DNA of 64,000 nucleotides from an uncultured bacterium (GCA_964373045.1 CAYJSI010000001.1:31650-95649), one strand, 5' to 3'. Shown: positions 13,412 to 63,958, numbered from the stretch's first letter. Notes: a model not told the origin generated them from the sequence alone. Numbers and translations are program-made.

Positions 13412-13420
13412 GGCGCATCC

Positions 13421-23837: not shown

Positions 23838-23845
23838 TTTCAACC

Positions 23846-33168: not shown

Positions 33169-33184
33169 CTAGTAAGAATAGTTA

Positions 33185-33213
33185 TTGACACTAAATAACC
33201 ATCATGCTAAAGT
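33185..33213 (+). promoter_or_regulatory. Sigma70-like promoter TTGACA-17 nt-TAAAGT
   Basis: Seen in the 66-nt gap after pseG, 22 nt upstream of the HTH ORF. Confidence 0.35.
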
Positions 33214-33234
33214 TACACCTCCCAAATCAACAAA

Positions 33235-36431: not shown

Positions 36432-36439
36432 GTTAGCAA

Positions 36440-37234: not shown

Positions 37235-37260
37235 AACCGTCTTATGAGGGCGCTTCCATT

Positions 37261-38845: not shown

Positions 38846-38863
38846 ACGGAAACAAGAACTTCC

Positions 38864-40204: not shown

Positions 40205-40210
40205 CTTAAT

Positions 40211-41134: not shown

Positions 41135-41188
41135 CTTACTCGTTTCTTTTACTGTCGTAGAAATACATTGAAAGGTGTTCCGATAAAA

Positions 41189-44120: not shown

Positions 44121-44620
44121 CCAAACGGGTCAGGCAGTCCTCTGCCACGGCAGAAATTCTGAACCTGCGGGCGGTTCAACCGAGCGATAAAAAAATCCTA
44201 TGGGAATGGAGTAACCGGCCTCAAACGAGACGCTATTCATTCAACTCAAAACCAATTTCCTGGGCGGAACACGTTAAGTGGTTTGCCTCAAAAATGCGAG
44301 ACCGACGATGCTATTTTTATGTCGCAGAAAACTGTGGAAACCGGCCCGTGGGCCAGATTCGGTTTGAGAGAAAGGGTGAGGTAGCGATTGTTTCTTTAAT
44401 GGTCGATAAGAAATATCAAGGACGGGGATATGCCAGTGAAATGCTGACGCTTTCGTCAAAGAAACTCTTTAAAAACAACATAAAAAAAATACTGGCTTAC
44501 GTGCTGCCGCAAAATTATATTTCGTTGGAATTTTTTAAAAAGAATGGATTTAAAAAGTCGGGTTTTATTTTTGTCAATAAGAAGTCGGCTTACAAGTTGG
44601 AACTTCGGAGAAAACGATGA
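44117..44620 (+). CDS. pseH: GNAT N-acetyltransferase, PseH-like
   Basis: 167 aa. LRAVQPSDKKILWEWSNRP...VGQIRFERKGEVAIVSLMVDKKYQGRGYASEML shows PseH-like architecture. It sits between the cytidylyltransferase/aminotransferase and pseI. Confidence 0.5.
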   Translation: MTKRVRQSSATAEILNLRAVQPSDKKILWEWSNRPQTRRYSFNSKPISWAEHVKWFASKMRDRRCYFYVAENCGNRPVGQIRFERKGEVAIVSLMVDKKYQGRGYASEMLTLSSKKLFKNNIKKILAYVLPQNYISLEFFKKNGFKKSGFIFVNKKSAYKLELRRKR

Positions 44621-49417: not shown

Positions 49418-50616
49418 TGACGACAGCATTAAAAGCGCTCGCGTATAAAATTCCTGAGGATGTCATCTTCCATATTTCCAAAGAGCGTCTTATCGCCACC
49501 AACGTTTTTGCCCGGACCCATGTAGAGATCAATGACGATCTTGTCAGGTTGACAAGATTTCTGTTCAAAATGAGGTCTTTGGATGACATCCTTGAATTTA
49601 TTCAAAATTGCAATCTGAAACTTGCGGCAACGGACCGTACTATCTTCTCAAACAAAAAGGGGCTTTTGGCGGATCCGACCAATCTTGAAATAAGCCAGAC
49701 GTCCCAACCGCAAACCCAGTGGGAAGAGGTCCTTAAATTGTTTTTGAGCCGGTTCATTTTAATTCAGGACGAAAAAAAGTACCGTGGCTATTTTAAAGCC
49801 AAAGACAATGTCTTTGATAATGACCATTTCGGAAATTTTCATCAGCAACTCGGGTTTAATCTTCGCCTCTTAGAAAGAGTCGATCCTGATTTGTGGTGGG
49901 TGGAGCAAAAATACCGCCACGATGAAGACGCTCTCGGCGATAATCTTTATAAGCACATTCAGTTGTATTTTTACGAACGTTTTTTTACACCTGAAAGGAT
50001 AAGAGGTAAAAGAGTGCTTGATGTCGGATGCGGTACGGGGTTTTACTCGCGATTGCTTGCCCGGCAGGGTGCTACGGTTTTAGGCATTGATCCCAACGGA
50101 AAACATATTCAACGCGCTAAATCATTGCATACCGAAGGACTACGAGTTGAATACCGAGTCGTGGATATAGCGAGCGGTTCGGCTTTGGAAAATCTCGCAT
50201 CCGATTCCTTCGACCTAATCTTTTTCCAGGACGCATTGATGTTTTACTTCGTTCCCTACGGCAACCAGCCTTTGACAACGTGTCAAAAAGTGCTTTCTGA
50301 ATTGAAGCGATGCCTCAAAAAAAACGGCAGTTTTTGGGTGATTGAGCCCCACGGTATGTTCTGGCTTTCACCCTGGTTCGGAAGCGATGAATACCCCTTT
50401 AGTGTCATCACCGAATATGCGCACAAAACTTATGGCGTCACTCCGACGCTGGAGCAATTATCAGCTGCTTTTGAAGATGCAGGACTTTTAATTAAGCGGA
50501 TCCATGAGCTTGAAGTTTCTGAAAAAGCTCAAAAAGATGACGTGCGCGCCTTTTCGTTCAGCCGGGAATTTCCGCAGTGGTGGGCTTTTGAATTAGTGAA
50601 AGGTGGAGAATCATGA
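49417..50616 (+). CDS. Class I SAM-dependent methyltransferase with an N-terminal accessory domain
   Basis: VLDVGCGTGFYSRLL motif I, LGIDPN, FDLIFFQDALMF. The ATG at 49417 overlaps the upstream stop. Confidence 0.55.
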   Translation: MTTALKALAYKIPEDVIFHISKERLIATNVFARTHVEINDDLVRLTRFLFKMRSLDDILEFIQNCNLKLAATDRTIFSNKKGLLADPTNLEISQTSQPQTQWEEVLKLFLSRFILIQDEKKYRGYFKAKDNVFDNDHFGNFHQQLGFNLRLLERVDPDLWWVEQKYRHDEDALGDNLYKHIQLYFYERFFTPERIRGKRVLDVGCGTGFYSRLLARQGATVLGIDPNGKHIQRAKSLHTEGLRVEYRVVDIASGSALENLASDSFDLIFFQDALMFYFVPYGNQPLTTCQKVLSELKRCLKKNGSFWVIEPHGMFWLSPWFGSDEYPFSVITEYAHKTYGVTPTLEQLSAAFEDAGLLIKRIHELEVSEKAQKDDVRAFSFSREFPQWWAFELVKGGES

Positions 50617-50870
50617 AAGAATTGATCACTAAACAAATTATGAATTATTTAAATGATTCCGGATTGTCGGTCAATGCCTTGCGACCACATGACATGCTAT
50701 TTGAGACGGGTGCCCTTGACTCATTTAGCATGGTTGAACTCATCACATTTCTGGAGAATAAGTATTCAATGCGATTTAGCGCCGATGATTTGAAAAGAGA
50801 ATATTTGGAATCGGTCGACAAAATCGTTGAACTTATCTCTAACAAAATGGAACTAAAGCGACATGGGTAA
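50613..50870 (+). CDS. DltC-like (D-alanyl-type) carrier protein
   Basis: 85 aa. ETGALDSFSMVELITFLENKY closely resembles DltC EEGLLDSFGTVELLLAIENRF (phosphopantetheine Ser). Confidence 0.5.
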   Translation: MKELITKQIMNYLNDSGLSVNALRPHDMLFETGALDSFSMVELITFLENKYSMRFSADDLKREYLESVDKIVELISNKMELKRHG

Positions 50871-52620
50871 AGCTCTCATCTTGGAAGAACGAGTCTCGGA
50901 CAGGGCAGCCGATTATGATCACGTTTTCTCGTTTTCGTCTAATCCGGCAGATTCATTTCCCGAAGATTACATTACGCAGTCTGAAATCAATGAAATTTAC
51001 GATCAGACTTACGAGGAGGTTTGCTCACGGTTGGCATCGGCGTTTAACCATCTTCAGTACCGAAAAGTTAGTCTGCTAACTTGCTTTAGAAAGCCCATTT
51101 TCCTTCATACTTTTTATGCGCGCGCCTTCGCTGTTATTTTCCAACGTGTTCGCTTAAAAAACCAATCCTGCGATTTTTATTTAAAAAACTCGACTCATGA
51201 AAAAAATTGGTCCTACCTGAGTCAAATTCTGGAGCAACAGGATTCTCTTGGCCCCATTCACATTATTTATGACAACTCAGGTAATCACTCAATAAAGCAT
51301 GATCCGGGTCACAGGCTCAAGTTGTTCGGGCCTTCCAAAGTTTCATTTGGCAATCTTCGTAGTTGCCGCGTAGCTTTTTTTTCTGATTATGAAAAATCAA
51401 AGGCTGTATTGCAAAGATTACATGGTAATGATTGTATTTTATTCTCAACAACCGTGTCGGCGCGGACATTGATGCGAGCTTTTAAGCATCACACAGCGCT
51501 ATTTCAGGTTCAGACCAATTCCATGGAGCACTCTCGACGGAATGCCGTTTGCGAATCTTATATTTCGGAATGGTTAGCCAGCAACCCGTTTAGTAACTTA
51601 ATGCTTAACGATTTCTCGGGCATTAAGTTTATTGTTCAAAAGGTCGCAGAATTGCTACGGGAAGGTCTGCCTAAGCTATTGTGTGAAATTGACGCGATGT
51701 TTAATTTTTTCATAAAAGCACATTCACTAGAGAGTGCCTTATTAGATGAAGACGTCTCGCCCGCAAAAAATGCGTTTTGTCAAATTGCAAGAATGTTTGG
51801 GATACAAACCTACGTTGAATGTCACGGTGCACTTGGTGGGCGGCATGGCCTTGTCCCGATTACAGCCGATCATATATTTGTTTGGGGAAATGCTCAAAAA
51901 AGAAGGTTGCTGCAATGGGGCTGTAAAAACGAAGAGGTTATTGTCTCGGGACGAAGCCAATATGAGTCCTACAAGATCCTTGACAAGGATAAGGTTAAAA
52001 GAAAAATCTTCAAACGGTTCAATTTACACCCGGATAAGAGAACGGGCTTGCTTGCCATGCCGACACTTGGGGCTTCGTGGTTCTTCTTTTTTGAGAACAA
52101 AATGAAGCGAATTACTTTGGAAGCGTTAGATCTTGTATATGACTTGGTGAAATTGCAGGATATGCAGTTTATCATTAAGCTTCATCCGGTGGACCCATCG
52201 ATTAATTTTTACTCAGATTGGGTGAATCGGCACTCTTTGACTAAAAAAGTTGTAGTGATTAAAAGTTATGATCCGCTTTTGCTTGCAAAAGCGTCTGATT
52301 TCATGATTGCCTATGGCTCGACCACCTATGCAATTGATGGGTTTGCCTTAGGTCTACCTGTCATTTGTCTTGATTCAGACATGGAGTCCTATTACGAAGA
52401 ACTCAAGCCATACTCGATATTCCGTTTTGTTAATAACAGGCGAGAACTAGAAAAGGCGATCGCGGATCTTAATGTGGGTAAACTCGGCCCTGATCCTGAA
52501 ACCTTGAACCTGGCCAGAAGGGAATGTCTCAACGAAAACGGGCTTCCGCCTGATGAAATTATTGCATCTTATTTAAAAAATGGCTCTCTTCCAGGCGCTG
52601 CTCAAAAATATGCCGGTTAA
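50863..52620 (+). CDS. GT-B-type transferase, TagF (Glyphos_transf)/Capsule_synth (KpsS/KpsC)-like; candidate nonulosonic-acid or polyol-phosphate transferase
   Basis: C-terminal DFMIAYGSTTYAIDGFALGLPVI resembles the TagF D.LITDYSS...KP.I block. ECHGALGGRHG is His-rich. Confidence 0.3.
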   Translation: MGKALILEERVSDRAADYDHVFSFSSNPADSFPEDYITQSEINEIYDQTYEEVCSRLASAFNHLQYRKVSLLTCFRKPIFLHTFYARAFAVIFQRVRLKNQSCDFYLKNSTHEKNWSYLSQILEQQDSLGPIHIIYDNSGNHSIKHDPGHRLKLFGPSKVSFGNLRSCRVAFFSDYEKSKAVLQRLHGNDCILFSTTVSARTLMRAFKHHTALFQVQTNSMEHSRRNAVCESYISEWLASNPFSNLMLNDFSGIKFIVQKVAELLREGLPKLLCEIDAMFNFFIKAHSLESALLDEDVSPAKNAFCQIARMFGIQTYVECHGALGGRHGLVPITADHIFVWGNAQKRRLLQWGCKNEEVIVSGRSQYESYKILDKDKVKRKIFKRFNLHPDKRTGLLAMPTLGASWFFFFENKMKRITLEALDLVYDLVKLQDMQFIIKLHPVDPSINFYSDWVNRHSLTKKVVVIKSYDPLLLAKASDFMIAYGSTTYAIDGFALGLPVICLDSDMESYYEELKPYSIFRFVNNRRELEKAIADLNVGKLGPDPETLNLARRECLNENGLPPDEIIASYLKNGSLPGAAQKYAG

Positions 52621-54131: not shown

Positions 54132-54160
54132 TTTACAGATGGCGCTATTTGCTGTATTAT
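54132..54160 (+). promoter_or_regulatory. Sigma70-like promoter TTTACA-17 nt-TATTAT, with a TG dinucleotide directly upstream of the -10
   Basis: Seen in the 153-nt intergenic gap upstream of the HldE-like gene. Confidence 0.3.
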
Positions 54161-54226: not shown

Positions 54227-55798
54227 GTGGTTATGGGACGAACCTTTGAAAACATAGTGAAGGAACCCAAAATTAGGGCAGAGAGCAAGATACGAGCTCT
54301 TGAAGAGCTTGCCGATATTGCCAATGCCCTCAAAGCTGAGGGAAAGAAAATTGTCCATTGTCACGGAGTCTTTGATCTCCTCCACGTCGGCCACGTGCGG
54401 CATTTTCATCATGCTAAAAAAATGGGGGACGTCCTTATCGTGACGATCACCCCCGACCGATATGTCAACAAGGGCCCTCACCGACCGGCCTTTTCTGACC
54501 ACCTTCGAGCCGAGGTCATTGCCGCCTTAGAGCCCGTTGATTACGTGGCCATCAACAAGTGGCCCATAGCCACGGAAGCCATTCGTCTTATTCAGCCTCA
54601 TTTTTATGTGAAGGGCTCTGATTACAAGGACGCCGAGAAGGATCCCACGGGAGGGATCAAACTCGAAAACGAGGCCGTAAAGTCGGTGGGGGGACAGCTG
54701 GTTTTTACGGAGGATATCACTTACAGCTCCTCGAACCTGATTAATCGTCATTTTTCTTCGTTTTCGGAGGAGGTCAATGCCTATCGGCTTGAATTTGCTT
54801 CCCGCCACTCCCTGGATGAAATCGTTGGCTGCCTTGACCGCGCCCGCAATCTCAAAGTCCTTGTTGTGGGTGAGGCCATCATTGATGAGTATCAATATGG
54901 TGAGGCTATCGGAAAATCTTCGAAAGAGCCGATGCTGGCTGTGAAGCGGCTTTCTACGGAACAATTCGCCGGCGGATCTCTTGCCGTCGCCAACCACGTC
55001 GCCAATTTTTGCGACCATGTAGGGCTAGTGACTTTTTTAGGCGACCACCATTCTCAGGAAGAATTTATCCGTCAAAATCTCAACTCAAAAATTCAGGCCC
55101 GTTTTTTGTACCGCAAGGATTCGCCGACCATCGTAAAGCAACGATTCATCGAAAGCTATTTCTTCTCCAAAATGATGGAGCTTTATGAGATTAATGACGG
55201 TGCCTTGGATCCTTCGGACAATCAGGCCTTATGCCGTGCGCTGGAGGCTGAAATCGCCGAATACGACGTCGTGATTGTGATGGATTTTGGTCATGGGATG
55301 ATGACCAAAGAGGTTATTGATCTTCTGTGCCGTCGATCCAAATTTTTAGCGGTGAACGCTCAATCCAACGCCGGCAATATAGGGTACCAATCCATCGTCA
55401 AATACCCTCGGGCCGATTATGTTTGTATGGCTGAAAATGAAATCCGGATGGAAGAACGGGACCGGCGGGGCGATTTAAAGCAATTAATTTTGAACTTATC
55501 CAAAAAATTTGATTACGGCAGAATTACCGTAACGCGGGGAAAGTCGGGGTGCATCTGTTATAGTCAGGAGGAAGGATTTGTCGAAGTGCCTGCCTTTGCG
55601 GGAAAAGTCATTGACCGCATGGGGGCCGGAGATGCCTTTCTTTCCTTGACGGCTTTGTGCGTGGCCCAAAAAATTCCATCGGAAGTCGTCGGATTCATCG
55701 GCAATGTTGTCGGCGCCCAAGCCGTGGCCACCGTGGGCCACCGGCGATTTATCGAACGCGCGCCGCTCTATAAACATATCGAGTCCATCTTGAAATAA
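54227..55798 (+). CDS. Bifunctional sugar-phosphate nucleotidyltransferase (HldE domain-II/TagD-like, N-terminal) plus PfkB-family sugar kinase (C-terminal); domain order permuted relative to E. coli HldE
   Basis: N-terminus HCHGVFDLLHVGHVRHF...DVLIVTITPDRYVNKGPHRP...ALEPVDYV aligns with RfaE domain II. The C-terminal half has PfkB motifs (VVGEAIIDEY...GAGDAF). Confidence 0.5.
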   Translation: MVMGRTFENIVKEPKIRAESKIRALEELADIANALKAEGKKIVHCHGVFDLLHVGHVRHFHHAKKMGDVLIVTITPDRYVNKGPHRPAFSDHLRAEVIAALEPVDYVAINKWPIATEAIRLIQPHFYVKGSDYKDAEKDPTGGIKLENEAVKSVGGQLVFTEDITYSSSNLINRHFSSFSEEVNAYRLEFASRHSLDEIVGCLDRARNLKVLVVGEAIIDEYQYGEAIGKSSKEPMLAVKRLSTEQFAGGSLAVANHVANFCDHVGLVTFLGDHHSQEEFIRQNLNSKIQARFLYRKDSPTIVKQRFIESYFFSKMMELYEINDGALDPSDNQALCRALEAEIAEYDVVIVMDFGHGMMTKEVIDLLCRRSKFLAVNAQSNAGNIGYQSIVKYPRADYVCMAENEIRMEERDRRGDLKQLILNLSKKFDYGRITVTRGKSGCICYSQEEGFVEVPAFAGKVIDRMGAGDAFLSLTALCVAQKIPSEVVGFIGNVVGAQAVATVGHRRFIERAPLYKHIESILK

Positions 55799-55800: not shown

Positions 55801-56796
55801 ATGGAAAAAAGCGCCTCAAGCATCCTCACCAAGAACGGTATTTTGCTTAAATGCTACCGGGACATGCTGCGCATCCGCCGGGTCGAAGAACGCATTGCGG
55901 AACTTTATCCGGAACAGGAAATGCGCTGTCCAGTTCATCTTTGCATCGGCCAGGAAGCGATTGCGGTCGGTGTGGCCGCGGCGCTCGATAAAAAGGACTA
56001 CGTTTTAAGCAACCACCGGTCCCACGGACATTACTTAAGCAAGGGCGGCAATCTCAAGGCCATGATGGCCGAGCTTTACGGAAAAGCCACCGGATGTACT
56101 CAGGGCAAGGGCGGATCCATGCACCTGATGGATCTTAGCGTGGGTTTTTTGGGCGCCGCGCCGATCGTAAGCAGTACCATCCCCCTGGCCGTCGGAGCCG
56201 CCTTCGGATCCGTGATGAAAAAAGAAAAGAAGGTGACGGTTCCTTTCTTCGGGGAAGCCGCAACCGAAGAGGGTGTCTTTCACGAGAGTCTCAACTTCGC
56301 TCAGCTCAAAAAACTTCCCGTCATCTTTGTCTGTGAAAATAATTTATACTCTGTCTATTCTCCCTTGTCCGTGCGCCAGCCCCGCGAGCGCCAGATCTTT
56401 GAAATGGCCGAAGGCCACGGAATGGTAAGTTGCCAGGCGGACGGCAATGACGTTGAATCGGTAGCCGCCTTAGCCCAAGAGGCCGTGGCTAGGGCGCGGC
56501 GGGGAGAGGGACCGACCTTTTTAGAATTCATGACCTACCGTTGGCTCGAGCATTGCGGCCCGAATGATGATACGAGTGCGGGTTATCGAAGCGAGGCGGA
56601 ATGTCAGGAGTGGCGCAAGAAATGCCCGATTCAACGCGCTGAAAAAAAATTAAGGGAATCGGGGGACCTCACGGAAGAAGCGATTGACTCCATGCACCAA
56701 GAACTGGACGCAGAGATTGCAGAGGCCGTGACCTTTGCCAAACAAAGTCCGTTTCCTGCAAAAAATCTCGTTTGGGAGCACATCTACGCGTCATGA
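55801..56796 (+). CDS. Thiamine-diphosphate-dependent dehydrogenase E1 component, alpha subunit (pyruvate/acetoin dehydrogenase E1-alpha-like)
   Basis: YRDMLRIRRVEERIAELY, HLCIGQEAIAVG, GKGGSMHL and FGEAATEEGVFHESLNFA are E1-alpha TPP-binding signatures. Confidence 0.7.
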   Translation: MEKSASSILTKNGILLKCYRDMLRIRRVEERIAELYPEQEMRCPVHLCIGQEAIAVGVAAALDKKDYVLSNHRSHGHYLSKGGNLKAMMAELYGKATGCTQGKGGSMHLMDLSVGFLGAAPIVSSTIPLAVGAAFGSVMKKEKKVTVPFFGEAATEEGVFHESLNFAQLKKLPVIFVCENNLYSVYSPLSVRQPRERQIFEMAEGHGMVSCQADGNDVESVAALAQEAVARARRGEGPTFLEFMTYRWLEHCGPNDDTSAGYRSEAECQEWRKKCPIQRAEKKLRESGDLTEEAIDSMHQELDAEIAEAVTFAKQSPFPAKNLVWEHIYAS

Positions 56797-57857
56797 CCCG
56801 CCACCTTAAATTTTTCCAAGCCATCCACGAAGCCACCGACCTTGCGATGGAAAAAGATCCGCGTGTCTATTTGATGGGTCTGGGCGTCCCCGACCCCAAG
56901 GGCATTTTTGGAACTACGCTCGGGCTGCAGCAAAAATACGGACCGGGACGCGTCATGGATATGCCGACGGCGGAAAACGGCATGACCGGTGTCGCCATCG
57001 GCTCCGCCATGGTGGGAATGCGTCCCTTGATGGTCTTTCAGCGCGTCGACTTTGCGCTGCTTGCCATGGATCAAATTGTGAACACGGCGGCCAAATGGCA
57101 TTACATGTACGGCGGCAGAGAAAATATTCCCATGGTTATGCGTCTCATTATTGGACGCGGATGGGGACAGGGGGCTCAGCACGCGCAAAGCCTGCAGGCC
57201 TGGTTTGCTCACGTACCGGGTCTCAAAGTGATCATGCCGGCGACCCCGCACGATGCCAAGGGATTGCTGCTTGCCAGTATCGAAGATAATAATCCCGTCA
57301 TTTTCCTCGAGCACCGTTGGCTTCATAACACGTTTGGACCCGTGCCGGAAGGCTACTATACCGTTCCGATCGGAAAGGCCCGTGTCGCCCGCGAGGGAAA
57401 AGACGTTACCATCGCCGCCACATCCCAGATGTTCGTCGAGGCCTTGCATGCGGCTCAAATCCTAAGCGAGCAGGCTCAAATTGAGGCCGAGGTTGTGGAC
57501 ATCCGAACCTTGAGACCGCTCGATTCAGAAACGATTCTTAGGTCTGTAGCCAAGACGGGGCGTCTTATCGTGGCAGACACCGGTTGGAAAACGGGCGGAT
57601 TTGCGGGCGAAGTGATTGCGGTTGCAGCCGAGAAAGCGTGGGATGTCTTGAAATCTCCGCCAAGAAGGGTTGCCTCGGAAGACTGTCCTGTGCCCACAAG
57701 CCAGGCCCTTTCCATCCATTGCTATTCTCGAACCATGGATATCGTTTATCAGGTTTGTGAGATGGTTGGATCCGACAAGGAAAGCATTCGAGTTCCCGAG
57801 GAAATTTTAGCCGTACCGGCCGATATCCCCGATGCCAGCTTCGCAGGTCCTTTTTAA
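56793..57857 (+). CDS. Thiamine-diphosphate-dependent dehydrogenase E1 component, beta subunit
   Basis: FQAIHEATDLAMEKDPRVYLMGLGV, ENGMTGVAIGSAMVGMRP and the transketolase C-terminal-like region. The ATG overlaps the alpha-subunit stop (ATGA). Confidence 0.7.
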   Translation: MTRHLKFFQAIHEATDLAMEKDPRVYLMGLGVPDPKGIFGTTLGLQQKYGPGRVMDMPTAENGMTGVAIGSAMVGMRPLMVFQRVDFALLAMDQIVNTAAKWHYMYGGRENIPMVMRLIIGRGWGQGAQHAQSLQAWFAHVPGLKVIMPATPHDAKGLLLASIEDNNPVIFLEHRWLHNTFGPVPEGYYTVPIGKARVAREGKDVTIAATSQMFVEALHAAQILSEQAQIEAEVVDIRTLRPLDSETILRSVAKTGRLIVADTGWKTGGFAGEVIAVAAEKAWDVLKSPPRRVASEDCPVPTSQALSIHCYSRTMDIVYQVCEMVGSDKESIRVPEEILAVPADIPDASFAGPF

Positions 57858-59003
57858 ATGAAAACTTCCGTTATTCAGCCGCAAACGCAATCCTCAGCAC
57901 GCCAAATTCCGTACGTGAATATTGCCCGGCAGCACGCCCCGCTCAAGGCCCGCCTGCTCGAGGCCATCGGCCGCGTGATCGATAGCGGTCAATTTATTTT
58001 AGGAGATGAGGTTCAAACCTTTGAGAAACGCTTTGCGGCGTTTTGCGGCGTTCGTTTTGCCGTCACGGTTAATTCGGGCACAGATGCTCTTATTCTGGCA
58101 TTGCGTGCCTTAAATATCGGTCCAGGGGACGAGGTAATCACGGCGCCGAATTCATTTGTTTCCTCGGCAGCCTGCATTGTCATGGTGGGCGCTCGGCCTG
58201 TCTTTGCCGATATCGGTGCGGATTACAATATCGATCCGGCCAAAATCGAAAAGGCCGTTACTTCGAAAACGAAAGCCATTTTACCGGTTCATTTAACAGG
58301 CCGGCCTGCAGATATGGACGCTATCCTAAAAATTGCCAGCACCCGCAGACTCGCCGTCGTAGAAGACTGTGCCCAAGCAGGGGGCGCCGAATATCGGGGT
58401 CGGAAAGTCGGCTCCTTTGGCAGGTTGGGTTGCTTTAGCCTGCATCCTCTTAAAACATTGAATGCCTGCGGTGACGGCGGCATCATTACGACAGACGATC
58501 AGGCCTTATACCAAAGACTCAATTTGTTACGCAATTTAGGCCTTGAAAAACGCGAGAATAGTGTCCTTTGGAGCAGCAATTCACGCCTGGATACTATGCA
58601 GGCCGCCGCCCTGCTTGTCAAAATGGATTACCTGGAGGAGTGGACAGAGAAAAGGCGCCGGAATGCCGCCTTCTATCAAAGAAATTTGGTCGGAATTGTG
58701 GAAGTGCAAACACCGGTTGATCGCTCCCATGAAAAGGCCGTCTACCACACCTTCGTGATTCTGGCGGAAAGAAGGGACGAGCTTAAAACCTTTCTTTTTC
58801 AAAACGGCATTGGCACCAACATTCATTATCCCATCCCCATTCATCTTCAGTCGACGGCTCAATCGTTGGGATACGGACCCGGTTCTTTTCCAGTGACAGA
58901 ATCGCAGGCTAAAAAAATATTGAGTCTGCCCGTTTATCCCGAACTGTCCGCTTCAGATTTGGAATACATCGTTCAAAAAATTGAAGAGTTTTACAACCGA
59001 TAA
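57858..59003 (+). CDS. DegT/DnrJ/EryC1/StrS-family PLP/PMP sugar aminotransferase or dehydrase
   Basis: GDEVQTFEKRFAAFCG, VNSGTDAL, SLHPLKTLNACGDGG (Lys). Confidence 0.7.
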   Translation: MKTSVIQPQTQSSARQIPYVNIARQHAPLKARLLEAIGRVIDSGQFILGDEVQTFEKRFAAFCGVRFAVTVNSGTDALILALRALNIGPGDEVITAPNSFVSSAACIVMVGARPVFADIGADYNIDPAKIEKAVTSKTKAILPVHLTGRPADMDAILKIASTRRLAVVEDCAQAGGAEYRGRKVGSFGRLGCFSLHPLKTLNACGDGGIITTDDQALYQRLNLLRNLGLEKRENSVLWSSNSRLDTMQAAALLVKMDYLEEWTEKRRRNAAFYQRNLVGIVEVQTPVDRSHEKAVYHTFVILAERRDELKTFLFQNGIGTNIHYPIPIHLQSTAQSLGYGPGSFPVTESQAKKILSLPVYPELSASDLEYIVQKIEEFYNR

Positions 59004-59005
59004 CC

Positions 59006-60121
59006 ATGACCACCAAAACGATTCAGGTGAAATTTTCATACCTAGATAGGCAGTTTGAAGACATCGAGCCTTATTTAAACGATATTCGCACACTTGTACT
59101 CTCAGGTGATTTTACCCTCGGCCGCGCCGTTCAAGAATTTGAGACACGATTCGCCAAACTTTGCGAGATGCCCTTTGCGGTCGGCGTAGGTTCCGGAACG
59201 GATGCCATTGCCCTTGCCTTGCGTGCGCAGGGGATCGGACCCGGCGATGAAGTCATCACCCCATCCATGACCTTTATTGCCACCGTAGGGGCCATTGTCA
59301 TGACCGGGGCGAAACCTGTCTTTGTGGATAGTGAAAACGGTTTTGTGATTGACACACAAAGAATCGAGGCGGCGATCACCCCCAAAACAAAAGCCATTGT
59401 TCCCGTCCACTATACCGGCAACGTGCCCGATATGCCCCGCATCAAAGCCCTTGCGGAGAAGCAAGGCCTGCTCGTCGTAGAAGACGCGTGCCAATCGATG
59501 GCCGCGAGGCTAAACGATCAGCCGGTGGGTACGTGGGGGAGTGCGGCTTGTTTCAGTTTGCATCCCTTAAAGAATCTTAACGTATGGGGAGACGCGGGGG
59601 TGATTGTCACGCGTTCTAAAAAGCTGGCGGATGAATTAAGGCTCTGGCGTAATCACGGACTTAAAAATCGTGATGAGGTCGCCCTCTTTGGATGGAATTC
59701 CAGACTGGACACTCTTCAGGCTGTCATCGGAAACCGTCTGATCGATCAAACGGATTTCATCACCCGTCAGCGCATTGAAAATGCCAAGCGCTATGACGAA
59801 GGGCTAAGCGCCATTCCTCAGATTCGGGTCCCCGCGCGCCGCCCAGGAGTCAAACATGTCTATCACTTGTATATTGTCCGCGCCGAGCGCCGCAACGAGC
59901 TGCTTACCTATTTGAATCAAAACGACGTGGAGGCCAAGGTGCATTATCCCATCCCGGTCCATTTGCAGGAAGCGGCGAAATCCTTAGGGTATAAAAAAGG
60001 GGATTTCCCGATTTGCGAGGAAGACTGTCGCAACATGATCACCTTGCCGGCACATCAGCATCTCACCCCGGATGAGATCGATTATGCGATCGATCAAGTG
60101 CGCTCCTTTTACAAGAAGTAA
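59006..60121 (+). CDS. DegT/DnrJ/EryC1/StrS-family PLP/PMP sugar aminotransferase or dehydrase
   Basis: GRAVQEFETRFAKLCE, VGSGTDAI, SLHPLKNLNVWGDAG (Lys). Confidence 0.7.
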   Translation: MTTKTIQVKFSYLDRQFEDIEPYLNDIRTLVLSGDFTLGRAVQEFETRFAKLCEMPFAVGVGSGTDAIALALRAQGIGPGDEVITPSMTFIATVGAIVMTGAKPVFVDSENGFVIDTQRIEAAITPKTKAIVPVHYTGNVPDMPRIKALAEKQGLLVVEDACQSMAARLNDQPVGTWGSAACFSLHPLKNLNVWGDAGVIVTRSKKLADELRLWRNHGLKNRDEVALFGWNSRLDTLQAVIGNRLIDQTDFITRQRIENAKRYDEGLSAIPQIRVPARRPGVKHVYHLYIVRAERRNELLTYLNQNDVEAKVHYPIPVHLQEAAKSLGYKKGDFPICEEDCRNMITLPAHQHLTPDEIDYAIDQVRSFYKK

Positions 60122-60213: not shown

Positions 60214-61911
60214 ATGGCTCACGTGAAACAACCTTCTTACATGCTGCCGAGGAACATTGCATATACAAAACCTCCGAATCCGTTAGCGGTCGATGATGCT
60301 TTTGCGAGATATGCCAATCCGGACCCAACGACAAGCCGCACGATCACACTGATTAAGCCCCCAATCTTCTTCTCTAAAAATTCGTACAGCACCCCTTTAA
60401 CTATGCCGCTTGGCTTGGCTTATCTAGCGGCCGTTCTTGAAAAGGCTGGATATCGAGCGAAGATCATCGATTGTCCTGCTCTGGGCTTGGATCAGATCCG
60501 GTTGACATCCAATGGGCGTTTCAAAGTACAGGGTCTCGAGGATGAAAAATCGATCGAAAGGATCGACCGCAAATCCGACATCATTGGTATCACCATCATG
60601 TTTTCTGAAGAATGGCCGCATGTTCGCGATTATATCAATAAGATTCGGCAAGCGTTTCCTGAACAAACGATCATTGTTGGAGGTGAACATCCCACGGCAA
60701 TGCCCGAATATACTTTGCGAGACTGTCCTACGATCGATTATTTGGTGACGGGTGAAGGGGAATTGACCTTGCTCGAATTAGTCTACAGGTTGCGTTCCGG
60801 TCAATCGGTCCATGATGTCAACGGGATCGCTTATCTTGAGGGTAAAAAATTTTATCAGAAAGGGCTCTCTCCACGACTCACAGAAATAAGAGGAATACCT
60901 TGGCCTGCATGGCACCTTATTGATGTGCAAGCTTATTTTCATCCGAACTATACGATGGGTATTGGATACGGCAAAAATATGGCAATGCTTGCAACGCGCG
61001 GCTGTCCCTATCAATGCACTTTCTGTTCGAATCCACAGATGTGGACAACCCGCTACGTCATGCGTCCCGTCAAAGATGTCGTCGATGAAATCGTTCACAA
61101 TATTGAAACCTATGGCGCAAACAGTATCGACTTTTATGACCTTACGGCCATTGTAAAACGTGAATGGATCCTAGACTTTATCGCCGAGCTTGAAAGTCGT
61201 GCTGTTCATATTGTATGGCAGCTCCCTTCTGGAACCCGATCAGAAATTTTGGATGAACCGGTCCTTAAAGGGCTTGCGAAAACAGGTTGCGGTTTTTTGG
61301 TTTACGCTCCAGAGAGCGGCTCGCAAAAAACTCTCGATATGATTAAAAAGAGAGTGAATCTCAAAAATCTTCAACGCTCCGTTCGTACGGCACTACGGTA
61401 CGGCATTGTGGTGAAGATCAATTTTATTATCGGATTTCCTTTCGAAACGAGAAGCGACATTTTTAAAACACTCCTTTTTATCTGGAAGCTTGCTCTCATC
61501 AAAGCCGATGACTGCAACATTTCTACATTTTCGCCTTATCCAGGATCTGAACTATTTTTGGAACTTGATAAAGAAGGCACATTCGGCAAAATCAGCGATC
61601 GCTATTTTGAAAATTTGATGACACAATTCGATTTCACTGTAACCCAGACATTTTGCCGTCATGTGGGCTCTGCGGAAATAGTGCTTTACCGTATTTTTGG
61701 GATGTCTCTATTTTATATTCTGAGTTATCTCCGCAGGCCCGGCCGTTTGATAAGCTTAGTCAAATGCTTATTTCAAAAAGGGCCTTTCCAACCTAAAAGT
61801 TTGTTTGAACAACGAATCTATGACGTGGTCGCTCGGCGTCGACAAAGTGCTTCCATCGCGAATGTAAAGAGGGACGAGACTCCAGCGGTACTGGTTGCAA
61901 CGCAAAAATAA
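60214..61911 (+). CDS. Class B (B12-binding) radical SAM enzyme, candidate C-methyltransferase
   Basis: The N-terminal B12-binding domain (LGLAYLAAVLEKAGYRAKIIDC...IIVGGEHPT) is followed by TRGCPYQCTFC (CxxxCxxC). Confidence 0.6.
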   Translation: MAHVKQPSYMLPRNIAYTKPPNPLAVDDAFARYANPDPTTSRTITLIKPPIFFSKNSYSTPLTMPLGLAYLAAVLEKAGYRAKIIDCPALGLDQIRLTSNGRFKVQGLEDEKSIERIDRKSDIIGITIMFSEEWPHVRDYINKIRQAFPEQTIIVGGEHPTAMPEYTLRDCPTIDYLVTGEGELTLLELVYRLRSGQSVHDVNGIAYLEGKKFYQKGLSPRLTEIRGIPWPAWHLIDVQAYFHPNYTMGIGYGKNMAMLATRGCPYQCTFCSNPQMWTTRYVMRPVKDVVDEIVHNIETYGANSIDFYDLTAIVKREWILDFIAELESRAVHIVWQLPSGTRSEILDEPVLKGLAKTGCGFLVYAPESGSQKTLDMIKKRVNLKNLQRSVRTALRYGIVVKINFIIGFPFETRSDIFKTLLFIWKLALIKADDCNISTFSPYPGSELFLELDKEGTFGKISDRYFENLMTQFDFTVTQTFCRHVGSAEIVLYRIFGMSLFYILSYLRRPGRLISLVKCLFQKGPFQPKSLFEQRIYDVVARRRQSASIANVKRDETPAVLVATQK

Positions 61912-62036
61912 TTGCATCATGTCTTTAAGCCAAACAACCCTTTGCTTGAATTATTTTTCGCGTTATCGATGAGGCCGCTTGCGCCTGACATCACAGTGTG
62001 CGTTTTGTCTTTGCATGGAGATTCCAAAACTTGGAA

Positions 62037-62804
62037 ATGAAAGCAGTTATTTTGGCGGGTGGGCGCGGAACGCGCCTCAGCGAGGAAACCGATAGCATCC
62101 CAAAACCCATGGTTCTCATTGGGGGGAAGCCGATTCTGTGGCACATCATGAAGACTTATTCTGCGTACGGGATAAACGACTTCATCATCTGCTGTGGATA
62201 CAAAGGTTATGTGATCAAGGAATATTTCGCCAATTATTTTCTTCATATGTCGGACGTTACTTTCAATCTGGCAAAAAATAGCATGGAGGTGCATCAGAAC
62301 TCCGCAGAACCATGGCGCGTTACTTTGGTCGATACGGGTGAACATACGATGACCGGTGGACGGCTCAGACGCATTGCCAATTACGTGAAGGGTGGAACTT
62401 TTTGCATGACCTACGGCGATGGCGTTGGCAACATCAATATGAATGAATTGATTGAGTTTCATAGGAAGGGGCGATATCTGGCAACTGTTACCGCAGTTCG
62501 CCCCCCAGGCCGTTTTGGTTCTTTGATTATTGACAAAGGCAGGGTGACTCATTTCTGTGAAAAAGTTCCTGGAGACGGCGGGTGGATCAACGGTGGTTTT
62601 TTTGTTTTAGAACCGCAAGTAATCGATTACATTCAAGATGATTCGACGTTGTGGGAGCGGGACACGATGCGGATCTTGGCTGAAGATGGAAAACTTGCTG
62701 CCTTCCAATATTATAACTTCTGGCAGCCGATGGACACCCTGAGAGATAAAAAACATTTAGAAACTCTCTGGGAGTCCGGCCAAGCGCCGTGGAAGGTTTG
62801 GTAA
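62037..62804 (+). CDS. rfbF: Glucose-1-phosphate cytidylyltransferase
   Basis: [26 protein letters not shown]...[11 protein letters not shown]...LVDTG...GGRL is highly characteristic of RfbF/DdhA. The ATG at 62037 is preferred over the track start at 61998. Confidence 0.75.
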
Positions 62805-63958
62805 TGGATACATCAGGTTTGTTTCATGAGTTTTTTCGCAACAAGACGATACTCGTCACGGGACATACCGGTTTTAAAGGATCATGGCTCTCACTTTGGT
62901 TGCGAGAACTCGGGGCAAATGTCGTCGGATATTCTCTTCAGCCACCTTCACAGCCCAACTTATTTGAACGATGTGGTCTCGATAAAAAGATTCGATCTAC
63001 TTTCGGAGATATTAGAGATCTGAACCACCTCCGAGACGTCATTTCTGAGACAAAACCTCACGTCGTCTTTCACTTAGCCGCACAACCATTGGTTCGCACC
63101 TCTTATCTCACGCCTGTGGAAACTTTTTCGACGAATGTGATCGGTACGGTTCATGTGTTAGAAGCGGTCCGCCAAGCGGGCTCCTCGGTACGCGTGTGTC
63201 AGACCGTAACTTCGGACAAATGTTATGAAAATCTAGAAACAGAGCACACTTATGCCGAAACGGACTCCATGGGTGGGCGCGATCCTTATAGCGCAAGCAA
63301 AGGTGCTGCGGAATTAACGATTGCGGCCTATCGATGCTCTTTTTTTCCACCTCAAATGATTCATGAGCATGGGGTATCGCTAAGTTCCGTTCGAGCTGGA
63401 AATGTCCTGGGGGGAGGGGATTGGGGCGAAGGTCGTCTTTTACCTGACTGTGTCCGTGCCCTCTCAAAAAACCAGTCTATCGAAATCAGAAATCCAACTG
63501 CCGTACGCCCATGGCAATATGTCCTTGACGCACTGTCGGGAAATCTGCATCTCGCGGAACAGCAGGCGAGCGGCTCAGCGATCTATGCCGATGGGTGGAA
63601 TTTTGGTCCCGATGTCACTGAAGGTTTAAGGGTGGCGGACCTTACCGAAAAAGTGATTCAGCATTGGGGCTCCGGAAATTGGTTTCACGCCAACGGCAAC
63701 AACGTATCAGAACGAAACTCCTTCCGTGAGGCCAAACTCCTGAGGTTAGATTGTTCCAAAGCGAACAGACTTTTGAACTGGCGTCCTGTCTTTAATAGCG
63801 AAGAATGCATAGCAGAAACCGTACGTTGGTACAAGCTCGCGTATCAAGACACGAACTTCGACGCTTTTACATACACAATGGACTGCATCAAAAAATACAT
63901 CAAAGCTGCAAAAGAACGTGGGGCACCATGGGCCATTCAACAAAAAGCGTTCCGATAA
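62804..63958 (+). CDS. rfbG: CDP-glucose 4,6-dehydratase
   Basis: KTILVTGHTGFKGSWLSLWL, FHLAAQPLVRTSY and YSASK (YxxxK) are RfbG/DdhB signatures. The ATG at 62804 overlaps the rfbF stop. Confidence 0.75.
   Translation: MDTSGLFHEFFRNKTILVTGHTGFKGSWLSLWLRELGANVVGYSLQPPSQPNLFERCGLDKKIRSTFGDIRDLNHLRDVISETKPHVVFHLAAQPLVRTSYLTPVETFSTNVIGTVHVLEAVRQAGSSVRVCQTVTSDKCYENLETEHTYAETDSMGGRDPYSASKGAAELTIAAYRCSFFPPQMIHEHGVSLSSVRAGNVLGGGDWGEGRLLPDCVRALSKNQSIEIRNPTAVRPWQYVLDALSGNLHLAEQQASGSAIYADGWNFGPDVTEGLRVADLTEKVIQHWGSGNWFHANGNNVSERNSFREAKLLRLDCSKANRLLNWRPVFNSEECIAETVRWYKLAYQDTNFDAFTYTMDCIKKYIKAAKERGAPWAIQQKAFR

Follow-up and report, generated by a model that had tools for sequence, protein, structure and literature searches.

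The DNA analysed here is a 64,000-nt window, part of a 136.6-kb contig from an uncultured bacterium, and carries near one end the genes for both subunits of a ThDP-dependent E1 enzyme:

55801-56796, plus strand: ThDP-dependent E1 alpha subunit of an orphan clade (331 aa; PF00676 E1_dh, E=7e-76)
56793-57857, plus strand: E1 beta subunit (354 aa; Transket_pyr and Transketolase_C, E=5e-32 each)

Both genes are intact and match the Pfam families E1_dh and Transket_pyr/Transketolase_C, showing that the alpha/beta pair reported in the first-pass annotation is real. The start of the beta gene was revised from TTG 56772, as given by the ORF finder, to ATG 56793, and the translation from this codon is exactly the 354-aa gene product on record at NCBI. 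The revised start overlaps the stop codon of the alpha gene as ATGA, by which the beta subunit is predicted to be translationally coupled to the alpha subunit. Alignment with the human and G. stearothermophilus E1 was used to check the catalytic residues: E1 alpha keeps its catalytic His residues and ENN motif, with GEA in place of GDG, and counterparts of beta-Glu59 and beta-His128 are retained in E1 beta. With the ThDP/Mg motif, the alpha His, the beta-Glu and the beta-His all in place, the pair looks catalytically competent. With annotated PdhA and AcoA, the identity is 40-42%. At 327.3 bits, E1 alpha stays below the cut-off (393.85) of the PDH E1-alpha equivalog TIGR03182, and E1 beta barely passes the "PDH E1 beta" subfamily cut-off of NCBIfam (326.7 bits vs 321) and fails the PDH equivalog (316 bits vs a cut-off of 454). 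E1 beta also bears the signatures of its clade, IGRGWGQG, ADTGW and a C-terminal extension ending in DIPDASFAGPF.

The pair had been described as lacking E2 and E3, and a search for a nearby E2/E3 operon and a phylogeny of the subunits had been proposed as checks. Neither check gave a result against the description. Biotin_lipoyl, 2-oxoacid_dh and Pyr_redox domains were absent from essentially every ORF of at least 150 aa in the window when searched with Pfam or NCBIfam, seven E2/E3 queries gave no tblastn match within the window, and no E2 or E3 gene was found in 74 related loci with flanks of up to 10 kb per side. The same seven queries did detect E2/E3 beside canonical E1 pairs in control loci, where the plasmid-borne pdhA and BCKDH genes had E2 directly downstream and, in two of the three, lpdA as well. 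In a neighbour-joining tree without bootstrap and with a small reference set (the E2-linked PdhA of Desulfotalea and Priestia and BCKDH of Rhizobium, human PDHA1, a Thermus gene annotated as acoA, and RenH), the pair fell into a clade made up of orphan E1 pairs and separate from E2-linked PDH, AcoA, BCKDH and RenH. The closest Streptomyces relatives (~51% identity) reside in non-sugar NRPS/PKS-like contexts, and therefore clade membership alone is no proof of sugar chemistry.

These data bear on a conventional explanation of the pair, in which it is the E1 component of a dehydrogenase complex for pyruvate or acetoin, has its E2 and E3 encoded elsewhere and would supply, for example, acetyl-CoA for N- or O-acetylation. 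All the residues for lipoamide-dependent E1 chemistry are retained and the beta subunit does exceed, if barely, the subfamily cut-off; moreover, the E1 copies of Coxiella were interpreted as acetyl-CoA suppliers in one paper. Nevertheless, we regard this explanation as very unlikely. E2 and E3 were found neither in the window nor in any of the 74 loci, which belong to many phyla, whereas canonical operons have them adjacent; E1 alpha is under the equivalog cut-off and the pair is placed in a separate clade; and the genes form part of a glycan cassette that is horizontally mobile and within which they are translationally coupled. The beta subunits of clade A, in addition, carry the conserved extension at their C-terminal end, which we take to be the end that contacts E2, as in the G. 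stearothermophilus E1-PSBD structure.

The E1 genes form the center of a cassette at 54.2-60.1 kb, with the following features around them:

54132-54160, plus strand: promoter-like site TTTACA-17-TATTAT (10/12 consensus positions), within the 153-nt gap that precedes the cassette
54227-55798, plus strand: HldE-like bifunctional enzyme, its domains in reversed order (nucleotidyltransferase at the N-terminus, PfkB sugar kinase at the C-terminus)
57858-59003, plus strand: DegT-family sugar aminotransferase A (PF01041, E=2e-115)
59006-60121, plus strand: DegT-family sugar aminotransferase B (PF01041, E=4e-103)
60214-61911, plus strand: class B (B12-binding) radical SAM enzyme (Pfam B12-binding and Radical_SAM)
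61998-62804, plus strand: rfbF, glucose-1-phosphate cytidylyltransferase (NCBIfam equivalog, 440 bits)
62789-63958, plus strand: rfbG, CDP-glucose 4,6-dehydratase (NCBIfam equivalog, 456 bits); the window ends at 64000

Thus, the neighbours named in the first-pass annotation (the HldE-like enzyme, two DegT proteins, the class B radical SAM enzyme, rfbF and rfbG) were all identified again with Pfam and NCBIfam. In the HldE-like protein, CTP_transf_like covers residues 46-172 and PfkB residues 210-506, and the translation shows HVGH and GAGD motifs. Its nearest NCBIfam models are the HldE/rfaE domains, under cut-off, and the best PDB match of its kinase is the heptose-7-phosphate kinase 4e84. 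DegT A has its lysine within SLHPLK, with 7b0d and the 3-aminotransferase QdtB as its best PDB matches. The five genes from the HldE-like gene through E1 alpha and E1 beta to the second DegT gene look like one operon, because they are separated by gaps of only 2, -4, 0 and 2 nt and have a common GC3. The promoter-like site is the best consensus match across 53.8-62.1 kb; an operon start there is only plausible, because the total number of promoter-like sites is not above the shuffled expectation. It is uncertain whether the radical SAM gene, possibly encoding a C-methyltransferase, is part of the cassette: it follows after a gap of 92 nt, its GC3 is 0.45 vs 0.53-0.61 in the cassette, and its homologs are present in only some of the related loci.

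In the window, the genes that accompany E1 pairs elsewhere are divided into two blocks ~30 kb apart, the cassette described above and a second block at 16.6-24.9 kb:

16602-17624, plus strand: SDR A, GalE/LegB/4,6-dehydratase-like (Pfam and NCBIfam matches)
17626-18234, plus strand: GmhA-like SIS_2 homolog of sedoheptulose-7-phosphate isomerase (best NCBIfam model gmhA, under cut-off)
18236-19273, plus strand: SDR B, Cj1427-like (best structure match by sequence and by fold)
19284-20522, plus strand: L-2-hydroxyglutarate oxidase, LhgO (equivalog NF008726, 522 bits vs a cut-off of 299)
20529-24882, plus strand: GT2 glycosyltransferase, B12 radical SAM enzyme and small ORFs

Homologs of SDR A (57-72% identity; 70% in Azospirillum oryzae) directly adjoin the HldE-like gene in many loci. 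The GmhA-like gene, whose ATG at 17626 is preceded by an AAGAGG motif, is elsewhere found between the HldE-like gene and SDR B. Among solved structures, SDR B is closest by sequence to Cj1427 (6vo6/6vo8, E=1e-40; the next match has 6e-30), and by fold Cj1427 is again its best match, with 33% identity and a TM-score of 0.78 (query-normalised) or 0.86-0.90 (target-normalised) for a model of pLDDT 83. Cj1427 makes GDP-4-keto-heptose with alpha-ketoglutarate and releases L-2-hydroxyglutarate (PMC10680097). SDR B is thus a candidate NDP-heptose C4-dehydrogenase that could plausibly supply a ketone acceptor, and we propose that LhgO, encoded directly downstream of it, recycles the by-product to alpha-ketoglutarate. 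The set of genes that ends this block is found directly after E1 alpha and beta in what we call type B loci, where the E1 genes are accompanied by genes for GT2 and radical SAM enzymes and no NDP-sugar genes lie nearby; compared with these clusters, the GT2 is 48% identical, the radical SAM enzyme (21375-23309) 44% and the final small ORF 42%. No GmhB was found in the window. The best matches of the GmhA-like and HldE-like proteins are heptose enzymes, all under the NCBIfam cut-offs, and the sugar may differ from D-glycero-D-manno-heptose.

We compared the neighbourhoods of the E1 pair in the related loci and, for counts of individual partners, in 36 close loci (the window included). The common gene order is SDR A, HldE-like, SIS, SDR B, E1 alpha and E1 beta, followed by two DegT or other tailoring genes, and the module is spread over Chloroflexota, Omnitrophota, Nitrospinota, cyanobacteria, Planctomycetota, Alphaproteobacteria and several archaeal phyla. 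SDR B is the commonest immediate upstream neighbour of E1 alpha (15/32 close loci) and lies within 9 kb of E1 in 24 of the 36. An HldE-like gene is near E1 in 22/36 and the E1 pair is followed by two DegT genes in 11-13/36, and GmhB homologs were detected in ~8-12 related loci. LhgO occurs with the module in only 4 of ~75 loci, and it recurs in three lineages: in L014 and L015 its homologs separate E1 alpha from E1 beta, and an lhgO gene is present in the S. magneticus pDMC1 cluster. Only two of the 36 close loci had RfbG-like genes near E1, and one of these two is the window. Judged from this conservation, the partners of the E1 pair are the HldE-like enzyme, the GmhA-like isomerase, the two SDRs and often two DegT enzymes, and not rfbF/rfbG.

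The first-pass annotation placed the E1 pair inside a CDP-deoxysugar sub-cluster and suggested a role like that of YerE, with CDP-4-keto-6-deoxyglucose made by rfbF/rfbG as the acceptor. The genes that it named are there; the label itself is an interpretation, and the linkage to rfbF/rfbG is not conserved. Likewise, sugar branching of the YerE kind is the best-supported function, whereas the acceptor is not the one to which comparative genomics points. If the CDP pathway were used, the pair would transfer C2 from pyruvate onto CDP-4-keto-6-deoxyglucose or a 3,6-dideoxy derivative to give a yersiniose-like octose. In its favour, the two rfb genes are true equivalogs on the same strand, 4 kb downstream; YerE and the AviB/Pau-type enzymes classically use 4-keto-6-deoxyhexoses as acceptors; and a few relatives (L002/L003, L021 and L063) have RfbF-like genes within 10 kb. 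We nonetheless consider this route unlikely, given that RfbG-like genes in only the two loci mentioned above stand against a Cj1427-like SDR and an HldE-like gene in the majority of the close loci, that rfbG and the intervening radical SAM gene have a codon-position GC (lower GC3) different from that of the HldE-E1-DegT cassette and are set off by gaps of 92 and 86 nt, and that no RfbH/DdhD-type 3-deoxygenation gene is visible up to the window end. Probably, rfbF/rfbG are neighbours that belong to a separate pathway.

The notion that sugar branching or carrier-protein acylation would be a new use of an E1 does not hold, since both uses are on record. PDH-E1-like pairs proposed, or in some cases shown, to add C2 from pyruvate to keto-sugars include AviB1/AviB2 of avilamycin, Pau11/Pau12 of paulomycin (knockout) and the aldgamycin pair (knockout and feeding); KbDH-alpha/beta of kibdelomycin is reported to have been shown to branch a sugar in vitro, about 120 E1-type sugar-branching clusters are reported, and the branch ketone may subsequently be reduced or transaminated (PMC4425429, PMC4753412, PMC12247030). 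Like these actinomycete enzymes of the E1 ("alphaKADH2") type, the pair in the window is a split PDH-E1-like alpha/beta enzyme without E2/E3, encoded in an NDP-sugar pathway with a keto-sugar-forming enzyme at hand (putatively SDR B, and also RfbG). The actinomycete enzymes, however, act in secondary metabolism on dTDP-deoxyhexoses or already attached glycosides, while the pair studied here, likened to them by description, is found in a surface-glycan locus with heptose-type activation and a Cj1427-like C4-dehydrogenase, and its relatives are spread over many bacterial and archaeal phyla. The role proposed for YerE/ErwE is the same, in that an acyl-anion equivalent is added with the help of ThDP to an NDP-4-keto-sugar of an O-antigen pathway; YerE differs in being a single acetolactate-synthase-like polypeptide (TPP_enzyme_N/M/C), some of them FAD-binding, of another superfamily than E1_dh/transketolase. 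From PDH, BCKDH and acetoin heterotetrameric E1, with which it shares the fold, domain split, ThDP motif and catalytic residues, the pair is distinguished by the missing E2/E3, its own clade and motifs, the beta C-terminal extension and the low-scoring alpha subunit.

Carrier-protein loading by an E1-type enzyme is known from QncN/QncL/QncM, which require a lipoyl/E2-like domain (PMC6335953). By analogy, the E1 pair could generate an acetyl or glycolyl unit on the 85-aa carrier-like protein encoded at 50613-50870, for N-acylation of the pseudaminic-acid-type sugar of the window, and the first-pass annotation had offered acylation of a carrier protein as its alternative. The precedent is itself an argument, as are the LDSF motif of the carrier-like ORF, the presence in the window of a KAS III gene and an AMP-ligase/aminotransferase fusion, and a Streptomyces relative (51% identity) that adjoins a condensation-domain protein and ACPs. 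In the E1-E2-ACP systems QncN/L/M, SclQ1-4 and RenH/RenI, as would be the case here, a ThDP E1-like enzyme serves biosynthesis outside central metabolism, with glycolicacyl-S-ACP as the product of these systems. But these systems keep an E2-like lipoyl/acyltransferase domain and an adjacent ACP, both of which are missing beside the pair, and RenH falls outside the orphan clade. The known mechanism needs the acyltransferase domain, none of which was found in the window, and none of the 74 related loci has a homolog of the carrier-like ORF, which lies 5 kb off in a compositionally distinct low-GC pseudaminic acid segment. We thus find carrier loading hardly probable.

A further set of possibilities keeps the E1 pair in the glycan pathway and gives it another ThDP reaction in place of branching at a ring ketone: non-oxidative decarboxylation of a 2-oxo acid to an aldehyde for amination by DegT, acyloin extension at an aldehyde, or transketolase-like C2 transfer. 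The E1 and transketolase families support all these chemistries, and two aminotransferases are encoded directly after E1 beta. Several related loci also contain split transketolases or, in L002, L012, L021, L031, L033, L067 and L072, a YerE-like gene besides the E1 pair, which suggests that these pathways include at least two ThDP steps; type B loci, with E1, GT2 and radical SAM genes and no NDP-sugar genes nearby, fit as well. On the other side, the closest partner gene encodes an SDR predicted to form a keto-sugar, and DegT enzymes normally act on NDP-keto-sugars. According to a review, moreover, every characterised E1-type sugar enzyme puts its C2 branch on a ketone. A reaction of this group therefore seems rather unlikely to us.

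Our preferred interpretation is that the E1 pair is standalone, not part of a 2-oxoacid dehydrogenase complex, and works as a ThDP-dependent carboligase of the alphaKADH2 type on an NDP-4-keto-heptose; to these statements taken together we assign a probability of about 0.5. The pair would then most likely give an activated keto-heptose a two-carbon branch, and not make acetyl-CoA. Carboligase chemistry is plausible because E1-type pairs elsewhere branch keto-sugars with C2 from pyruvate, and a supply of the ketone acceptor is plausible because SDR B is Cj1427-like and adjoins an LhgO equivalog that recurs in three lineages, the Cj1427 and LhgO assignments being by homology only. In the pathway that we envisage, the GmhA-like isomerase and the reversed-domain HldE-like kinase/nucleotidyltransferase would lead to an NDP-heptose, with the 7-phosphate removed by a GmhB phosphatase, the gene for which is present in some related loci and presumably at another place in this genome. 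SDR B would oxidise C4 of the NDP-heptose at the expense of alpha-ketoglutarate, and LhgO would convert the released L-2-hydroxyglutarate back to alpha-ketoglutarate. The E1 pair would decarboxylate pyruvate to hydroxyethylidene-ThDP and attach the resulting unit to the ketone of the sugar, so that a heptose with a C-acetyl branch and a tertiary alcohol would result. The two DegT enzymes would transaminate the branch ketone and/or the ring ketone, as in the amycolose of kibdelomycin, and the SDRs and B12 radical SAM enzymes would modify the product further before its incorporation into a surface glycan. We infer all of these steps, including the nucleotide carrier, the branch position and the pyruvate donor, from the gene content. 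We know of no described natural C2-branched heptose.

Two known heptose systems can be compared with the proposed pathway. In the capsular heptose pathway of Campylobacter jejuni, an SDR likewise oxidises C4 of an NDP-heptose and the 4-keto-heptose is then tailored, and it is to this SDR, Cj1427, that SDR B is nearest, although the identity is only ~33%. The C. jejuni pathway differs in using separate HddA, GmhB and HddC, GDP as the nucleotide, and tailoring by epimerisation and reduction only; the literature cited here on it mentions neither an E1 pair nor LhgO. The second system is the phase I LPS region of Coxiella burnetii (CBU0674-CBU0698), where CBU0678 is an HldE homolog with the same unusual reversed domain order as the HldE-like protein of the window (PMC5843353). 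CBU0678 is essential for phase I LPS, and the large NMII deletion spans cbu0678-cbu0698. The region has the same gene types, a phosphoheptose isomerase (CBU0674) and SDR epimerase/dehydratases (CBU0676 and CBU0677), together with "pyruvate dehydrogenase E1" genes (CBU0686, CBU0692 and CBU0693), so that by gene type the window matches a Coxiella-type module of reversed HldE, GmhA-like isomerase, SDR and E1 in a glycan locus, as far as the description in the literature goes. Against C2 branching there, the known C-branched sugars of C. burnetii, virenose and dihydrohydroxystreptose, carry C1 and not C2 branches. We tentatively suggest that there may be an undescribed pathway, transferred horizontally among many bacterial and archaeal phyla, whose signature enzyme is the orphan E1 pair and which would convert an NDP-heptose, via a 4-keto intermediate made by the Cj1427-like dehydrogenase with LhgO recycling, into a C2-branched aminated sugar of at least 9 carbons, and which might also operate in the C. 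burnetii region (CBU0674-0693). If this speculative extension is true, one constituent of the Q-fever LPS has been overlooked or wrongly assigned until now, and so has the function of the essential cbu0678. In either case, the E1 pair lies in a widely shared surface-sugar cassette, the gene types of which are also described for the virulence LPS locus of C. burnetii. The solved structure nearest to DegT B is 3uwc (E=1e-141, 475 bits), a C. burnetii aminotransferase according to the entry title.

The two E1 reading frames proved to be real genes. E1a, encoding the alpha subunit (331 aa), matches PF00676 (E1_dh, E=7e-76), and E1b, encoding the beta subunit, matches Transket_pyr and Transketolase_C (Pfam, E=5e-32 each). 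The ORF finder placed the E1b start at TTG 56772; an ATG at 56793 overlaps the E1a stop codon as ATGA, and the 354-aa protein read from this ATG exactly matches the NCBI gene product, confirming the corrected start and indicating that E1a and E1b are translationally coupled. The neighbours named in the first-pass annotation were likewise confirmed by Pfam and NCBIfam:

54227-55798: HldE-like protein, with the nucleotidyltransferase domain N-terminal of the PfkB kinase
55801-56796 (+): E1a
56793-57857 (+): E1b
57858-60121: two DegT aminotransferases, DegT_A (57858-59003) and DegT_B (59006-60121)
60214-61911: B12-binding radical SAM enzyme
downstream of the radical SAM gene: rfbF and rfbG, both NCBIfam equivalogs

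The pair had been described as an orphan, and this held. Scans of essentially all ORFs of at least 150 aa against Pfam or NCBIfam revealed neither a lipoyl nor an E2 catalytic nor an E3 domain in the 64-kb window, which is the part of the 136.6-kb contig that the search in the source genome covered. E2/E3 proteins of E. coli, Priestia, Rhizobium and Desulfotalea, used as queries, gave no real match in 74 related loci (7 contigs from metagenome or other assemblies and 67 species-representative genomes). As a positive control, the same queries readily found E2/E3 in control loci on plasmids, beside the canonical E1 pairs there; E2 directly follows E1 beta, and lpdA comes next in two of three. 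Because no E2/E3 turned up in the 74 loci, it is very unlikely that the pair is a conventional E1 using distantly encoded E2/E3. E1a also falls short of the cut-off of the NCBIfam PDH equivalog, and annotated PdhA and AcoA sequences come no closer than 40-42% identity. In a neighbour-joining tree with few references and no bootstrap, the pair grouped with other orphan pairs, apart from E2-linked PdhA, AcoA and BCKDH and from the fused RenH.

Alignment with the human and G. stearothermophilus E1 showed that the pair keeps the ThDP/Mg motif, the alpha histidines, the beta glutamate and beta-His128. The Mg2+/ThDP-binding motif at E1a residues 151-153 is GEA in the window and GDG in canonical enzymes; among close relatives (clade A, or type A) this position reads GDG in 15, GDA in 14, GEA in 9, GEG in 5 and GDS in 1, and in the distant sub-clade (type B) it is nearly always GDG. 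E1b carries the clade signatures IGRGWGQG and ADTGW. In clade A it has in addition a conserved C-terminal extension of ~30 residues ending DvPDxSFtGPF (ADIPDASFAGPF in the window), which is absent from canonical E1 beta and from type B; one Streptomyces relative's E1b ends AGFAGPY. The extension may keep E2 from docking, or it may bring in another partner.

The close relatives, defined by an E1a identity of at least 55%, are found in Chloroflexota, Omnitrophota, Nitrospinota, cyanobacteria, Elusimicrobiota, Planctomycetota, Alphaproteobacteria and several archaeal groups. The type A gene order is SDR_A, HldE-like, SIS (GmhA-like), SDR_B, E1a, E1b, after which come two DegT genes or, in other loci, another set of tailoring genes (a 4,6-dehydratase-like SDR, a short-chain reductase, methyltransferases, a YerE-like ThDP enzyme, a NUDIX protein and a zinc-type alcohol dehydrogenase). 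An annotated case is a plasmid of Azospirillum oryzae KACC 14407, NZ_CP054615 (identities to the window of 70% for SDR_A, 62% for SDR_B, 54% for E1a, 51% for E1b and 49-57% for DegT), whose cassette genes bear generic annotation names throughout; its E1 pair is HUE56_RS00820 and HUE56_RS00825. Type B pairs (49-54% identity, mostly Deltaproteobacteria) are arranged as radical SAM/SPASM, E1a, E1b, GT2, B12 radical SAM, small ORF, GT9-like and radical SAM; those from Deltaproteobacteria MAGs are L048, L051, L053-L058, L060, L064, L066 and L071 of the loci collected for comparison. No nucleotide-sugar activation genes were found near the E1 pair in type B loci. The window holds the partner sets of both types 30 kb upstream of the pair:

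16602-17624: SDR_A
17626-18234: SIS (GmhA-like)
18236-19273: SDR_B
19284-20522: FAD oxidase, LhgO
20529-24882: type B homologs, namely GT2, B12 radical SAM and small ORF

Neighbours were counted in 36 non-redundant close loci. An SDR_B-like gene lies within 9 kb of E1a in 24 of the 36 (directly upstream of it in 15/32) and an HldE-like gene near it in 22, but an RfbG-like gene in only two, one of which is the window itself. The first-pass annotation had proposed a YerE-like branching of a CDP-sugar. The branching itself is still the best-supported function of the pair; the CDP pathway as the source of the acceptor is not sustained, and with the rfbF/rfbG linkage so weakly conserved, CDP-4-keto-6-deoxyglucose seems quite unlikely. 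GmhB phosphatase homologs, present in about 8-12 related loci, support a heptose-bisphosphate route. The heptose-type enzymes of the window (HldE-like, GmhA-like) score below the curated NCBIfam cut-offs, a weak point of the explanation proposed below.

By sequence, the best solved-structure match of SDR_B is 6VO6/6VO8, which is Cj1427 of Campylobacter jejuni (E=1e-40; the next match is at 6e-30). The fold of its AlphaFold model (pLDDT 83) also matches, with 33% identity and a TM-score of 0.78 normalised to the query or 0.86-0.90 normalised to the target. Cj1427 binds NADH tightly and uses alpha-ketoglutarate to re-oxidise it, releasing L-2-hydroxyglutarate (PMC10680097). In the window, SDR_B is immediately followed by an equivalog of L-2-hydroxyglutarate oxidase (NCBIfam, 522 bits; cut-off 299). 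Only four loci have LhgO together with the module, a further weak point. In two Omnitrophota loci, L014 (10025-13150) and L015, a homolog with 58% identity to window 19284-20522 lies between E1a and E1b, and the E1 cluster on plasmid pDMC1 of Solidesulfovibrio magneticus contains an lhgO gene too. Read most simply, SDR_B would make an NDP-4-keto-heptose and LhgO would regenerate its oxidant, so that a ketone electrophile would be available beside the ThDP enzyme.

We propose, with a probability of about 0.5, that the pair is a standalone ThDP carboligase that puts a C2 unit from pyruvate onto an NDP-keto-sugar, most likely the 4-keto-heptose of SDR_B. In the proposed pathway, SDR_B would oxidise NDP-heptose to NDP-4-keto-heptose with alpha-ketoglutarate, LhgO would return the L-2-hydroxyglutarate to alpha-ketoglutarate, the E1 pair would add the pyruvate-derived unit to the keto-sugar, and amination of the product by the DegT pair would follow. 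Some other ThDP chemistry within the same glycan pathway is unlikely, as the closest partner of the pair is a keto-sugar-forming SDR. The same linkage disfavours a role upstream of the SIS isomerase, in which E1 would make a ketose-phosphate precursor in the manner of DXS/LmbR: the tightest linkage is not to the isomerase, and the product would be a 1-deoxy-ketose, which cannot be isomerised to an aldose. We also considered alpha-ketoglutarate as the E1 donor, as LhgO might suggest, but dropped it: recycling of the L-2-hydroxyglutarate left by SDR_B accounts for LhgO better, and known E1-type sugar branchers use pyruvate (PMC12247030). A phosphonate-like route was rejected as well, since the radical SAM matches to P-methyltransferase models were weak, with scores far below the cut-off, and the scans turned up no PEP mutase domain.

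Several related loci encode further ThDP enzymes. A YerE-like gene (TPP_enzyme_N/M/C, ~593 aa) lies a few genes downstream of the pair in L002, L003, L012, L021, L031, L033, L067 and L072, and a split transketolase is additionally present in L004, L008 and L038. With such genes beside E1 pairs, pathways of this kind may include two or three distinct carboligations by ThDP enzymes.

The first-pass annotation had regarded either sugar branching or carrier acylation as a new use of an E1; precedents exist for both, so neither function would be new. Pau11/12 and AviB1/B2 have been proposed to install a C4 acetyl branch from pyruvate, and paulomycin production is lost on pau11 knockout (PMC4425429, PMC4753412). 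A 2025 review groups these enzymes as "alphaKADH2", citing about 120 clusters, knockout and feeding evidence for the aldgamycin pair, in vitro ketone carboligation by KbDH-alpha/beta and transamination of the branch ketone in kibdelomycin; it assigns alphaKADH2 enzymes to secondary metabolites, and to LPS those that resemble YerE (PMC12247030). The window pair, compared with AviB, Pau and KbDH by description only, differs in belonging to a surface-glycan cassette. A full-text search returned no paper tying an E1 to a branched sugar in an O-antigen cluster, and a broader search returned annotation tables only. What the genes plausibly represent is an E1-type sugar brancher, together with a partner that would recycle a cofactor, in a heptose-based cassette for surface glycans that is widespread.

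E1-like carrier-protein loading by QncN/L/M uses a lipoyl/E2-like domain (PMC6335953). Such a domain is absent here and the carrier-like ORF of the window has no homolog in any related locus, making acylation of a carrier protein by the pair, the other suggestion of the first-pass annotation, highly improbable. Two orphan pairs of ~51% identity to the window were seen on Streptomyces plasmids, in S. griseofuscus pSGRIFU1 (L077, 14980-17026) and S. albogriseolus pSALBX2 (L085, ~13947-16000). One is flanked by a condensation-domain protein, ACPs, ketosynthases and a thioesterase, and the other by ABC transporter genes, an AMP-ligase, TrpA-like and PRAI-like proteins and an acyl-CoA dehydrogenase. 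No deoxysugar context was found in either of these secondary-metabolite clusters; thus they form no bridge to the antibiotic sugar enzymes, and the orphan E1 clade is functionally mixed, which weakens the proposed explanation.

The best solved-structure match of DegT_B is 3UWC (E=1e-141), a C. burnetii aminotransferase according to the PDB entry title; a single-sequence AlphaFold model of DegT_B (pLDDT 35) was unusable. Matched by gene type from the literature, the C. burnetii phase I LPS region resembles the window, with a phosphoheptose isomerase (CBU0674) and two SDRs (CBU0676, CBU0677). CBU0678 is an HldE homolog of "unconventional, reversed domain arrangement" essential for phase I LPS (PMC5843353); its role is still called unclear in 2026 texts. 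The E1 genes of this region (CBU_0686, CBU_0692, CBU_0693) were read as pyruvate dehydrogenases boosting acetyl-CoA and fatty-acid metabolism (PMC5423948), and given the conserved glycan context of E1 pairs this reading is probably wrong. An E1 pair is also listed, without comment, in a strain-specific polysaccharide cluster of Crocosphaera watsonii.

If our proposal is true, thousands of glycan-locus genes labelled "pyruvate/acetoin dehydrogenase E1" would be re-read as sugar-tailoring carboligases; at least one paper already counts the Coxiella copies as acetyl-CoA suppliers. The proposal joins four assayable parts (the reversed-domain HldE, the Cj1427-type dehydrogenase, LhgO and the E1 pair), and its relevance lies in the C. 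burnetii LPS locus, where it would offer a link to virulence through what cbu0678 and the genes around it do for phase I LPS. Biocatalysis seeks ThDP enzymes that form tertiary alcohols, and many untapped ones would be available in the orphan E1 clade.

In the window, the five genes from HldE-like to DegT_B are separated by 2, -4, 0 and 2 nt and have a GC3 of 0.53-0.61, similar to the block at 1-32 kb. The segment between the two blocks (33.5-54 kb) has a GC3 of 0.42-0.47, below its flanks, and includes most of a pseudaminic acid cluster (PseB, PseC, PseG and PseI equivalogs). This suggests an insertion, and the heptose/E1 module therefore looks as if it had been split by it. GC3 is also low in the radical SAM gene (60214) and rfbG; rfbF appears to form with rfbG a unit of its own.

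Other genes of the window were noted as follows:

280-1992, 7580-9430 and 14169-15731: three PMT_2/GT-C-like membrane glycosyltransferases
3015-4811: DUF2079 gene
4808-6633 (-): 2OG-Fe(II) oxygenase and TylF-like O-methyltransferase
28131-29138: KAS III homolog
30968-45678: pseudaminic acid cluster
45651-48449: 932-aa fusion of an AMP-dependent ligase and a class I/II aminotransferase
50613-50870: 85-aa carrier-protein-like ORF with an LDSF motif, without a Pfam match

The pseudaminic acid cluster also contains WbuX/HisH/WbuZ-type amidotransferase genes (acetamidino modification), a CMP-sugar synthetase-like gene, a class III aminotransferase, GNAT acetyltransferases and an aldo-keto reductase. 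The nonulosonic acid probably receives an unusual N-acyl group made by the ligase/aminotransferase fusion, the carrier-like ORF and KAS III. ORFs 9327-11807 (+, 826 aa), 24896-26659 (-, 587 aa) and 50863-52620 (+, 585 aa) had no Pfam match at E<=1e-5. The region 280-15731 is a dense glycan-assembly gene set, also with four GT2 genes and several methyltransferases, and its gene content suggests periplasmic transfer from a polyprenyl-phosphate sugar. A phospholipid-carrier-dependent glycosyltransferase accompanies the E1 genes in the S. magneticus cluster.
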